Positions 50,315-55,943 of a stretch of 64,000 nucleotides of DNA are shown one piece after another (positions within the stretch are counted from its first letter, which is position 1; the number at the start of each line of letters is the position of its first letter). The stretch lies in NCBI GenBank assembly GCA_027487075.1, contig JAIYEG010000010.1, forward strand, positions 47,270-111,269. Direction: 5' to 3'. The notes beneath the pieces were generated by a model that had not been told where the DNA came from, did no database searches, and saw nothing but the letters and a program-made list of their open reading frames with translations. Source of the stretch: a bacterium. GTDB lineage: Bacteria > Patescibacteriota > Minisyncoccia > Phycocordibacterales > CALRBL01. The translations under genes were made by a program, and so were the position numbers.

Positions 50315-51058
50315 TCAAATTAACTGTTTAGCGAAGATTGTAGTAGGTTTAAATGATTTAATGATATCGATTTTTTTATTCGTTTTAAAGATAGTAACTG
50401 TCTTTATAACCATATTCGGTATGAGTTTTGGATGATAGAGAATATCCTTGTGAACAGCATTTTGCTTATTTTTAAACTTTTTTGGAGAATTATCACCACC
50501 AAGAAAATCGTTTCTTCCCAAAGCCAAGTGTATAGTCCCGGCAATCTTCTTATCCTGTACATCAACACCCACGTAGGGGAAGTTTTCTGTACCAATACCT
50601 AATTCAACAATCTTAGCCATACTTGGTTCCTTTTTAATTTTAGTGGTAAAACTTTGCACTTCTTTTTTGTTCCCAAAATATTCTAGAAGAGTGTCGATTT
50701 TACAATTTTTTAAAGAAAATAAAGCAGTAGTATCTTTGCTAATCTGAATTGGTAAAATACCCTTAGCATTTTTAGGAACGTAGAAGACTTCCCCGGTAGG
50801 GAGATTACCCACTTCGCCAACCTTATGGTAAAGACCACCATCTTTTCCTAATCCTTTATCACTAATTTCTATTTCAAAGGAATATGGATTTTTATTGAAG
50901 GTATAATCTACTTTTACCAAGTGAGTTCCTTCCAAGAATCTCAAGACTTTCTCGGTCCTTTTATCGACTTTATTATAGTCAGATGAAAGTCCCGTCGTAA
51001 GAACCTGTTTGGTAATCCCTGCCATGGTTGCAGCTCTAAATTTCAATTCCTTTGCCAT
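50315..51058 (-). CDS. M29 (aminopeptidase T/PepS)-like peptidase, C-terminal catalytic half only (probably truncated)
   Basis: ELGIGTENF...GTIHLALGRNDFLGGDN...HKD matches the M29 metal-binding C-domain. About 150 N-terminal residues are missing. Very AT-rich. Confidence 0.45.
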   Translation of the reverse strand: MAKELKFRAATMAGITKQVLTTGLSSDYNKVDKRTEKVLRFLEGTHLVKVDYTFNKNPYSFEIEISDKGLGKDGGLYHKVGEVGNLPTGEVFYVPKNAKGILPIQISKDTTALFSLKNCKIDTLLEYFGNKKEVQSFTTKIKKEPSMAKIVELGIGTENFPYVGVDVQDKKIAGTIHLALGRNDFLGGDNSPKKFKNKQNAVHKDILYHPKLIPNMVIKTVTIFKTNKKIDIIKSFKPTTIFAKQLI

Positions 51059-51132
51059 ATTCTTTAATGGCCCTGTCGCGGAATGGATTGTTATGGCTAG
51101 AATAATATCAAACCCCTTAAGGGTAGATTTGA

Positions 51133-51705
51133 TATTACGCTTCTTTCCAGAAAGATTGTAGACAAAAGTACCAAGGAAAGCATGAGCCGCTCATAACCAG
51201 AGAACTGTTCGACAAGGTGCAGGAGACTCTGATGGTATATACCGAGAGAAGCGAGCATAAGGAGTTTGCCTTCACCAAGCTCATGACTTGCGGACTCTGC
51301 GGATCAGGGATAACAGCTGATGACAAATTCAAAAAGCAAAAGGATGGCACTACTCACCGACACGTCTATTACGGATGCTGTCGCTTCTATGAGAAGAACT
51401 GCAAATGCGGATGGATCAACGAGGACGAACTGATCGAGCAACTTGCGACACTCATGGACAAGATAGACTTGGACGAGATCGGGATGAAGGAGAAGATAAA
51501 GGCGAAGGTCGAGGAACACAAGAAGTTAAACTCGAACCTGCTTGGCATAAAGGAGAAAGCGATCAGAGTAGCGGAAATCGATATACGAAACTATGCCAAA
51601 TATATTCTGCGAGAGTGCAGTATATGGGAGAAGCGAGAATTACTCTCATGCCTCAAGAGCAAGCTGAAGATGAACAATAAGGCGGTGAGGGTTGTGGAGA
51701 ACTAA
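51133..51705 (+). pseudogene. Remnant of a large serine recombinase (recombinase-domain tail + zinc ribbon + coiled coil; catalytic domain missing)
   Basis: ...RELFDKVQETL..., then Zn-ribbon CGLCGSGI...YYGCCRF and a coiled-coil tail. The open frame begins right after a stop at 51130-51132, with no resolvase catalytic domain upstream. Confidence 0.55.
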
Positions 51706-51718
51706 GTAAAGTAAGTAT

Positions 51719-52009
51719 TTATCGTGCTTCAGAAAGTTTCTCCGTAGGAGACAAACCTCCAAGTGCCTTGTGCGGAAAATAATTCCAGGCGTCGGTGACC
51801 GTTTCAATGGCATTACTCAAATTCACAGGATCGCCGTCATCGAACATGGCGACGATTTCCTGCATATCGTCATTGTCCTCCTCTTCGTAAATCGCCATCT
51901 TCACGTCATCAAGGGTAAAATCGCTCCCCGTTGCTTCGAGAAGCTCAGTGATTTCCTCCTCGATCTCCTTTCGACGTTCAATGATTTGTTGTTTTGATTC
52001 GGTATTCAT
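51719..52009 (-). CDS. Small acidic hypothetical protein downstream of the DGR target gene
   Basis: 96 aa, highly acidic (EEEDNDDMQE). Confidence 0.35.
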   Translation of the reverse strand: MNTESKQQIIERRKEIEEEITELLEATGSDFTLDDVKMAIYEEEDNDDMQEIVAMFDDGDPVNLSNAIETVTDAWNYFPHKALGGLSPTEKLSEAR

Positions 52010-52142
52010 ATATTTTTAAATATTTACAAAAATTTGGCGCGAGCTTGCTTCGCAAGCAAAGACAAAGTATCTAAGTATCCAAGATTCAAAGGGTCAAAGA
52101 TGCAAAGCAGAAGAATAAAGCGGAGAAAAAGGATACAAAGGA

Positions 52143-54717: not shown

Positions 54718-54765
54718 CCAGATCAGATATCCCTCTTTGACTCGATTCAGAATCGAGGCGGAATC

Positions 54766-54796
54766 GAGAGAGAGAGAGAGAGAGAGAGAGAGAGAG
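54766..54796. repeat. (GA)15 dinucleotide microsatellite between avd and the RT
   Basis: Perfect GAGAGA... run of 31 nt ending 4 nt before the RT ATG. Confidence 0.95.
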
Positions 54797-54800
54797 CGGA

Positions 54801-55814
54801 ATGCGGCCTGTTCATATCTACGATGATATCATTTCCGTCGAGAATTTGCTTAAGGCATGGCGAGAATTCCAGAAAGATAAAAGAAAACGCAAGGACGTGG
54901 AACGGTTCTCGGTTCACTTAACTGACAACATATTTGCCCTTCATAGGGAGTTAATGGACAAAACGTACCGACACGGCCCTTACAAAGCGTTCAAGATCAA
55001 TGACCCGAAGCCAAGAGATATTCATAAAGCTACGGTGCGAGATCGCTTGCTCCACCATGCGATCTATAGAATTCTTTACCCATACTTCGATCCGAAATTC
55101 ATCTTCGATTCTTTCTCATGCCGCCGTTCCAAAGGCACGCACCGAGCGATCAACCGCTTCCGTGATTATGCAAGAAAAGTTTCGCAAAATCACACTCGCA
55201 CTGTATGGGTGTTGAAGTGCGATATACGGAAATTCTTTGCCAATATCGACCATGCGATTTTAGAAGATATTTTAAGAAAGCGGATCGGCAATGAAGATGT
55301 CGTAATGCTTTTAAGCAGGGTCATCGAGAGCTTCAACACAAAAGGTAAGCTAGGCGTCGGACTTCCTTTGGGCAATCTGACCTCACAACTTTTGGTCAAT
55401 ATTTACATGAACGAATTTGACCATTTCTTGAAACGAAATTTGAAAATACAGTATTGCGTCAGATATGCCGATGATTTCGTCATCTTGCATGAAAACAAGA
55501 AATATCTGGAAAATATTCTGCCTCGGATATCAGAGTTTCTAGAGAGTAAATTGAGACTATCCTTGCATCCTGACAAAGTGTTCATGCGAACGATCGCCTC
55601 GGGAGTGGATTTTCTGGGATGGGTGCATTTTCCGCATCATCGGGTACCGAGGACATCGACCAGAAGGAGAATGTTAAAGAACCTGGCCAACAATCCGAAG
55701 GCGGGATCTCTGGCTTCGTATCAGGGGCTTTTGTCGCATGGAAATACGCACAAGCTACAAAAAGAGGTCGTTGATCGGAGCAAAACCGATCCCGCTAGGA
55801 ATAGGGGTTTATAA
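54801..55814 (+). CDS. DGR-type reverse transcriptase
   Basis: RT motifs 1-7: PKPRDIHKATVRDRLL, SFSCRRSKGTHRA, VLKCDIRKFFANIDH, LPLGNLTSQLLVNIYMNEFD (DGR hallmark LGxxxSQ), RYADDFVIL, SGVDFLGW. Confidence 0.9.
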   Translation: MRPVHIYDDIISVENLLKAWREFQKDKRKRKDVERFSVHLTDNIFALHRELMDKTYRHGPYKAFKINDPKPRDIHKATVRDRLLHHAIYRILYPYFDPKFIFDSFSCRRSKGTHRAINRFRDYARKVSQNHTRTVWVLKCDIRKFFANIDHAILEDILRKRIGNEDVVMLLSRVIESFNTKGKLGVGLPLGNLTSQLLVNIYMNEFDHFLKRNLKIQYCVRYADDFVILHENKKYLENILPRISEFLESKLRLSLHPDKVFMRTIASGVDFLGWVHFPHHRVPRTSTRRRMLKNLANNPKAGSLASYQGLLSHGNTHKLQKEVVDRSKTDPARNRGL

Positions 55815-55871
55815 CTTGACGATCTACGATAAGTGCTCTGTTGAGCCCTCTCGGTAGGTCTCACTAGCGTG

Positions 55872-55943
55872 TGCCCCCGGCAGGAATCGAACCTGCATCG
55901 ACTCGTTAGGAGTGAGCCGTTTTATCCATTAAACTACGGCGGC
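55872..55943 (-). tRNA. tRNA-Arg(CCU)
   Basis: T-arm GGTTCGATTCC, D-arm GTTTAATGGATAAAAC, anticodon loop CTCCTAA. One G-G mismatch in the acceptor stem and one A-C at 31:39. Confidence 0.6.

Follow-up and report, generated by a model that had tools for sequence, protein, structure and literature searches.

The window analysed here is a 64,000-nt stretch of contig JAIYEG010000010.1 (positions 47,270 to 111,269 of the forward strand) from a bacterium of the Patescibacteriota, and it carries a diversity-generating retroelement (DGR) beside a tRNA-Arg(CCT) gene. With a probability of about three in four, this DGR belongs to a 6.8-kb mosaic island at a tRNA-Arg(CCT) hotspot, in which a mobile DGR unit stands next to older or separate acquisitions. 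The island comprises at least two or three acquisitions and is not one decayed element. A first-pass annotation of this DNA had described the footprint of an integrative element that delivered the DGR and then decayed. That interpretation is supported in its essentials, with corrections: the insertion and the truncated genes stand, the single decayed element gives way to a mosaic, and the recombinase remnant cannot be tied to the DGR as its integrase.

Insertion at the tRNA-Arg(CCT) 3' end

Relatives of the window were ranked by LepA identity and their contigs retrieved for comparison (loci labelled L001 onward are contigs of relatives or related DGR loci). Seven loci with LepA 84-91% identical to the window (L002, L003, L005, L007 and L008-L010) keep the order MurJ - LepA - DivIC - glutaredoxin (Grx) - tRNA-Arg(CCT) - methyltransferase (MTase) - 86-aa gene - tRNA-Phe - Hsp20 - PrsW - ValRS as far as their contigs extend. 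The full order from MurJ to ValRS is found in L002 (LepA 90% identical) and L003 (84%); L008-L010 (89%) have the same order from LepA to the MTase, and there MurJ and LepA are separated by a Y1 (IS200/IS605-type) transposase gene (e.g. L008 2099-2605) that does not occur in the window. The window possesses an inserted block of 6,765 bp (49106-55870) between the 3' end of tRNA-Arg(CCT) and the MTase start codon, an interval of 5-8 nt in L002, L003 and L008-L010 (three arrangements). In blastn comparisons the collinearity with L002 ends at window position 55871, the tRNA 3' end, and restarts at 49099 inside the MTase (L002 12482-12803 corresponds to window 56214-55871, and L002 12813-13810 to window 49099-48113). 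The DGR is absent from this site in relatives with 91% LepA identity, and the block is present or absent at one conserved site among related genomes, as befits a tRNA-linked island. The island foreseen by the first-pass annotation at tRNA-Arg is borne out by this synteny; its left edge, formerly placed at 50315, lies at 49106 at the MTase start codon, so that an orphan 304-aa membrane protein is included.

The tRNA-Arg(CCT) gene, correctly noted before to the right of the reverse transcriptase (RT) gene, is found between Grx and the MTase in L002, L003, L005, L007, L008 and L009, and is a native landmark, not cargo. Its 3' end is an insertion hotspot in this Patescibacteria lineage, because L005 and L007, the closest relatives (LepA 91% identical), hold different, unrelated cargos of ~1 kb at the same tRNA-MTase point: a small membrane protein and a NUDIX protein in L005, and a 193-aa and a 107-aa protein in L007. 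The island and its two borders comprise the following features:

48251-49105, minus strand: SAM (S-adenosylmethionine)-dependent MTase, left flank outside the island; Pfam PF10672; 70-84% identical in L002-L010
49229-50143, plus strand: orphan 304-aa membrane protein, island cargo
50315-51058, minus strand: 5'-truncated gene (247 aa, 34.1% GC) of an uncharacterised family distantly related to M29 aminopeptidases and NicX
51059-51132 (74 nt): junction of two 5'-truncated, divergently oriented genes, a presumed deletion scar
51133-51705, plus strand: large-serine-recombinase (LSR) pseudogene with the recombinase-domain end, a Zn ribbon and a putative coiled-coil/helical region, and without the catalytic domain
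51719-52009, minus strand: 96-aa acidic protein; 77-78% identical copies beside the target gene in L097 and L110
52143-53981, minus strand: DGR target protein, 612 aa; 70-86% identical in many Patescibacteria loci, mostly with the same layout
52156-52286: variable repeat (VR), C-terminal in the target, last ~45 codons of the 612-aa open reading frame (ORF)
54252-54382, plus strand: template repeat (TR), 131 nt, 85% identical to the VR
54403-54717, minus strand: bAvd accessory protein; Pfam PF22296 1.4e-14; PHROG Avd
54801-55814, plus strand: DGR RT, 337 aa, full length; Pfam RVT_1 1.3e-23; PHROG RT 4e-106
55815-55870: 56-nt "arm" in which the DGR unit ends on its RT side, directly next to the tRNA 3' end; candidate half of an attachment (att) site
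55871-55943, minus strand: tRNA-Arg(CCT), 3' end toward the island; ARAGORN; lies 56 nt past the RT stop
55972-56232, minus strand: Grx, right flank outside the island; Pfam PF00462; syntenic in relatives

The DGR unit and its horizontal transfer

The DGR of the window is genuine and intact. It has a DGR-type RT, Avd, and a TR/VR pair at the 3' end of the target gene, in which all 20 mismatches fall on TR adenines (the TR holds 36 A); judged from its sequence, the unit still looks functional. RT-anchored scans yielded 160 loci across Patescibacteria. The window RT is 62-90% identical to the RTs of loci from metagenome and genome scans; avd is also encoded in nearly all of these loci and a target homologue in about 100, and in some relatives the 96-aa acidic protein accompanies the DGR unit. 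Viral contigs scanned with the DGR target returned nothing.

Other DGR units share homology with the window only from ~51770 onward; in none of them does it extend to the recombinase tail, the M29-like gene or the membrane protein. The best DGR match, L097, is 79.5% identical in DNA to the window over 51777-55877, a DGR unit of 4.1 kb, and its proteins are 90% (RT), 89% (Avd), 84% (target) and 78% (96-aa protein) identical to those of the window. Its genome is distant, with LepA 64% and MurJ 44% identical. Since genomes far closer to the window have no DGR at this site, the DGR unit has moved horizontally.

In L097 the unit ends in a near-identical copy of the 56-nt arm. GTGCCCC, which equals the first 7 nt of the window tRNA 3' end on the plus strand, comes next, and then unrelated DNA. 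Past GTGCCCC there is a 7-kb block (cupin, histidine phosphatase and phosphoenolpyruvate (PEP)-utilising genes) that ends in an intact serine recombinase of 439 aa at L097 16553-17872; the real tRNA-Arg(CCT) is 142 nt away from it. Such a picture is expected if the DGR unit first abutted tRNA-Arg and a second element then integrated at the same tRNA. Related arm copies adjoin tRNA-Gln or tRNA-like 3' ends in L047 and L105; in the latter, two copies flank the DGR, so that arm and tRNA-like 3' end are present on both sides, with a 5'-truncated recombinase tail just outside. L005, devoid of a DGR, has 19 of 24 nt of the arm right after tRNA-Arg, a score reached by 3 of 2000 shuffles. A tRNA is located within 300 nt downstream of the RT in 10 of 139 eligible RT loci (~2 expected by chance; several share identical coordinates and are probable duplicates, leaving ~7 distinct junctions), and in all ten its 3' end points toward the RT. 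A second arm type (GACAAYTTTTTATCGG) is common to three RT-to-tRNA junctions and to the junction of L110, where an LSR gene abuts tRNA-Ser. In seven loci (L011, L052, L063, L098, L099, L110 and L169) the first gene downstream of the RT encodes an LSR, and the contig of L011 is phage-like, with a terminase and DNA methylases. Adjacency of such DGR units to tRNA 3' ends and to serine recombinases is therefore recurrent.

The window tRNA-Arg ends in GGGGCAC, which would place G opposite G at pair 4-69 (acceptor stem traced by eye). The corresponding ends in the DGR-less relatives (L002-L009) read GTGGCAC, GAGGCAC or ATGGCAC, and the L097 scar beside the DGR unit reads GGGGCAC. This suggests that the last ~5-7 nt of the window tRNA-Arg (from 55871-55877) may have been supplied by the element.

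The intergenic region between avd and RT contains a (GA)15 tract (54768-54797) that stops 3 nt ahead of the RT start codon. In 126 of 149 related DGR loci (intergenic regions of L018-L176) the same place is taken by a (GA)n tract with n from 5 to 21 or by a run of ten or more G. Because its presence is conserved and its length variable, the tract could serve as a leader, a Shine-Dalgarno-like element or a phase-variable switch, or form part of the DGR RNA; a literature search found no description of a GA tract upstream of a DGR RT. In L099, target, TR and avd are duplicated in tandem (3939-6541 and 7308-9910) upstream of one RT, both copies giving the same match statistics against the window proteins.

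Truncated genes left of the DGR unit

The recombinase gene at 51133-51705 had been described as a remnant without catalytic domain, and so it is: what remains is the last ~24 residues of the recombinase domain, the Zn ribbon and the helical region behind it. Its product passes the Zn_ribbon_recom profile (PF13408, 6.2e-7, 30.1 bits, cutoff 25.3); from the Recombinase profile PF07508 only positions 76-99 of 102 are left (E=0.0019, 18.8 bits, below the cutoff of 21.1). The tail corresponds to positions 260-383 of 542 in NCBIfam CcrB and 252-379 of 465 in XisF, and also matches the A118 integrase structure 6dnw and a phage integrase PHROG. The proposed alignment to complete enzymes places the truncation point, the tail aligning with residues 253-388 of an intact 455-aa homologue. 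Intact relatives possess a Resolvase + Recombinase + Zn_ribbon architecture, and the four Cys of the Zn ribbon are invariant in the alignment with them; the coiled coil is predicted from the same alignment. The resolvase domain PF00239 gave no match in the product and is undetected in any frame or nearby, and tblastn with the intact 455-aa homologue finds only its residues 253-389 in the window. The homology is immediately preceded by stop codons, and the first possible start, a GTG, is 28 codons inside it. The frame is open over 190 codons (chance ~7e-6). With the catalytic domain lost, along with most of the recombinase domain, the product cannot function as a recombinase.

The 120 best homologues of the tail (51-74% identical, 51 of them on contigs of at least 5 kb) all measure 156-331 aa and lack a resolvase domain. 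The recombinase clade of the tail is seen mostly as relics, and relics of serine-recombinase genes appear widespread in Patescibacteria. Relatives are cut 5' at various points in L177, L180, L105 and L143 and have an in-frame stop in L181 and L182; the clustering of ORF lengths among the homologues results from gene callers restarting at conserved internal Met codons. In two intact examples, L097 and L110 (in the latter at approximately 11470-12798), the recombinase 3' end adjoins the att/tRNA junction, and this end could be the last part deleted, because deletions must spare the adjacent tRNA or a selected DGR; this is a plausible cause of the 5'-truncated relics. Production of 5'-truncated copies via reverse transcription is an idea to which the truncation pattern alone points. 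The viral-contig scan with the recombinase tail found nothing.

Three other origins of the tail were rejected: a split gene, as the window has no N-terminal part in any frame; a designed short protein, as truncation points vary between loci; and site-specific insertion into recombinase genes, as truncation points are scattered (alignment columns ~200, 235, 261, 315 and 345). In L182-L185 (1660-11120) a DGR (RT, bAvd and a 693-aa target) is situated between an intact 515-aa serine recombinase and one that is both nonsense-interrupted and 5'-truncated, and L183 has a third serine recombinase of at least 507 aa at the DGR. This layout was present in 4 of 24 contigs read for this protein, from four different samples.

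The neighbouring fragment at 50315-51058 had been called an M29 peptidase lacking its N-terminal half. It is truncated, to a smaller extent: residues 1-243 align to ~137-380 of full-length homologues of 365-396 aa, and ~135 N-terminal residues (~35% of the protein) of the two-domain protein are missing. The relationship to M29 is a distant one and falls short of membership in the Pfam family (PF02073, E=0.016, 14.4 bits, cutoff 27). An exhaustive HMMER search of the library returned 607 relatives, the best only 34% identical, and a word-indexed search with the fragment returned only itself. M29 matches with E<0.01 occur in 6 of 25 family members (best 9.4e-6), and the family profile finds NicX (0.0017), aminopeptidase T (AmpT, 0.006) and AmpS (0.03) in the PDB. 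The nearly invariant family motifs NLPxGE, ELGxG, HxAxG and HxD are readable in the translated fragment, whose frame is open at a chance of ~7e-8. One full-length homologue has a sugar transferase on one side and a methyltransferase on the other, and a second is a fusion with a methyltransferase; for this reason the gene is regarded as cargo and not as the decayed mobile-element gene it had been taken for.

The M29-like fragment and the recombinase tail are adjacent, as stated earlier; they are separated by 74 nt and face each other 5'-to-5'. The 74-nt junction (51059-51132) shows no homology to the recombinase or the M29-like family in any frame. One deletion over both 5' ends and the shared intergenic region would be the simplest origin of this junction. 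The truncation of both genes is probably recent, because both frames are still open and the M29-like motifs are kept.

Base composition was measured against 700-nt windows (mean 45.5% GC, standard deviation (SD) 4.1). The M29-like fragment (34.1% GC, z=-2.8), noted as AT-rich before, is the sole compositional outlier of the island; the target (50.2%, z=+1.2) and the RT (44.1%, z=-0.35), which had been described as GC-richer, are not outliers. The membrane protein gene has 50.3% and the recombinase tail 45.7% GC, and the island as a whole 46.2% against 45.5% in the window. The strong GC differences among its three adjacent left-hand genes (50%, 34% and 46%) speak for a mosaic island. Other low-GC patches of the window are found at 6150-7050, 27450-28250 and 62950-63100 (27-37% GC, more than 2 SD below the mean).

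Proposed assembly of the island and alternative explanations

From the layout we infer the following order of events. The distal part, with the recombinase 3' tail, the low-GC M29-like gene and the orphan membrane protein, would represent older or separate acquisitions. The 4.1-kb mobile DGR unit (96-aa gene, target with VR, TR, bAvd, RT and the 56-nt end arm) would be the tRNA-proximal module, arriving by horizontal transfer and most likely integrating through a large serine recombinase that paired the element arm with the tRNA 3' end. A single deletion between the divergent recombinase and M29-like genes presumably took both 5' ends and their shared intergenic region, which would leave the island without a recombinase to excise it. 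No functional integrase or recombinase gene is found in the island, which retains only the tail devoid of a catalytic domain.

Several observations weigh against this mosaic assembly around a mobile DGR unit. A serine recombinase is present within 10 kb in only 16 of 166 related DGR loci, and excision or integration activity of the unit is putative only. The whole DGR unit separates the recombinase tail from the tRNA, and the tail is only 35% identical to the L097 recombinase and 52-55% identical to its best DGR-linked relatives; it may have had nothing to do with the arrival of the DGR, and could derive from an older element that the DGR unit displaced. A direct repeat of the tRNA 3' end, which had been proposed as an att remnant, does not occur in the window above chance: the tRNA-Arg 3' end and the 56-nt arm were compared with the rest of the island by exact k-mers, fuzzy matches and Smith-Waterman alignment with shuffles, and the longest exact match is 10-11 nt, which is chance level, while local alignments score no higher than shuffles. 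Only GTGCC recurs at the left junction, too short to count, and in contrast to L105 the stretch from the tail to the 96-aa gene holds no second copy of arm or core. Targeting of tRNA 3' ends is classically a trait of tyrosine integrases. The att sites of serine recombinases share only a very short core, so that the missing repeat does not count against a serine recombinase.

A single integrative element, consisting of membrane protein, M29-like gene, recombinase and DGR, that integrated once at tRNA-Arg and decayed in place is an unlikely alternative. All parts are contiguous in one insertion, one deletion accounts for both truncations, and related DGRs do adjoin intact serine recombinases; however, the homology with other DGR units starts only at ~51770 and leaves out precisely the three left-hand genes, the GC content of these genes differs as given above, and the site holds other small cargos in L005 and L007, with stacked elements in L097 and L105. 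In L105, too, a DGR unit stands alone between att-like ends. Very little probability attaches to an ancestral block that the relatives lost by deletion, with no integration at all. The 24-nt arm remnant beside the tRNA of L005 indicates that loss does occur at the site, yet three lineages have tight tRNA-MTase junctions of 5-8 nt, with a distant genome the DGR unit shares far higher identity than the housekeeping genes do, and DGR units stand at several different tRNAs in other genomes. These identities already suggest that RT and target trees would disagree with host trees. It is just as improbable that the recombinase tail has been retained as a DNA-binding protein without catalytic domain, occupying att sites or regulating neighbours, for example. 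The frame open over 190 codons and the lack of a resolvase domain in all 120 best homologues would suit such a protein, but the homology begins right after a stop codon with the first start 28 codons inside, the relatives are cut at different positions or interrupted by in-frame stops (L177, L180, L105, L143, L181 and L182), and the clustering of ORF lengths is explained by the conserved internal Met codons.

Beyond this locus, a mosaic island with a mobile DGR unit leads to a tentative generalisation, which we hold at somewhat less than even odds: Patescibacteria DGR cassettes might be carried by small modules, ~4 kb long or ~5.5 kb when they include a serine recombinase of their own, that hop between distant lineages via a conserved arm and tRNA 3' ends (Arg, Gln, Ser, Ala, Phe), stack, decay, and leave truncated or nonsense-interrupted recombinase relics.

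Comparison with known systems

As a kind of object, the island of the window is an ordinary tRNA-linked genomic island. It shares with tRNA-associated islands carrying decayed integrases the insertion exactly at a tRNA 3' end, the absence from relatives, mosaic cargo, a broken recombinase gene, one compositionally deviant segment and accretion at a hotspot. It differs in that the relic is a large serine recombinase instead of the usual tyrosine integrase, and in the absence of a flanking direct repeat of the tRNA 3' end.

The DGRs of phages and mobile elements, such as that of Bordetella phage BPP-1 and the Legionella DGR on a putative mobile element (bioRxiv 10.1101/2020.04.01.020958), likewise combine RT, Avd, TR and a target with C-terminal VR, with adenine-specific mismatches, on horizontally moving DNA. 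The DGR of the window, in contrast, belongs to the Patescibacteria DGR clade, which is almost entirely cellular-encoded according to the largest DGR survey (bioRxiv 10.1101/2020.04.01.020958); its mobile unit measures only ~4 kb, avd, placed between TR and RT, runs on the other strand, and the RT is preceded by a (GA)n tract. The recombinase remnant aligns with the recombinase-domain end and the Zn ribbon of large serine integrases (A118, phiC31/Bxb1 type, CcrB and XisF), but it has lost their catalytic domain and the greater part of their recombinase domain. The M29-like fragment has weak profile similarity to the M29 aminopeptidases AmpT and AmpS and to the M29-fold dioxygenase NicX over the C-terminal catalytic half. 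It differs from them in its score below the Pfam threshold, in closest relatives that are only 34% identical, in a family that occurs beside or fused to methyltransferases, and in the loss of ~135 N-terminal residues in the window copy.

Less ordinary than the island itself is the behaviour that the comparison suggests for the Patescibacteria DGR, namely that of a compact module which moves horizontally, targets tRNA ends and is linked to serine recombinases. Literature searches returned no description of a link between DGR, serine recombinase and tRNA, nor of DGR mobility in the Candidate Phyla Radiation (CPR). The result accounts for how a bacterium with a reduced genome gained a hypermutation system, which, as no intact recombinase is left in the island, is now fixed in the locus. 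It indicates that "cellular" Patescibacteria DGRs move between distant lineages, bears on how Patescibacteria episymbionts acquire and exchange surface-protein diversification, and points to candidate serine integrases with specificity for tRNA ends.

Flanking genes and further observations

Outside the island and its border genes, the neighbourhood consists of:

44235-46478, plus strand: ValRS
46494-47207, plus strand: PrsW
47209-47718, plus strand: Hsp20
47886-47959, minus strand: tRNA-Phe
47965-48225, minus strand: 86-aa gene
56239-56784, minus strand: pilin-like gene
56762-57154, minus strand: DivIC
57446-59254, minus strand: LepA
59291-60967, minus strand: MurJ

The 304-aa membrane protein has no Pfam, NCBIfam or PHROG match, and no relative was found in the scan of the GTDB genome collection or in any locus retrieved; a perfect 15-bp hairpin terminator (50176-50207) is located 3' of its gene. 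The Logan contig L001 (run SRR30952591) is 100% identical to window 47934-51307, its ends falling inside tRNA-Phe and inside the coding sequence of the recombinase Zn ribbon. These break points are consistent with a recombinase sequence that is repeated or variable in the SRR30952591 sample. The DivIC - Grx junction is a second insertion hotspot: the window possesses the pilin-like gene there (56239-56784; a 50%-identical paralogue is located at 34809-35306), and relatives have nothing, an MFS (major facilitator superfamily) transporter (L007) or tRNA-Gly (L002).

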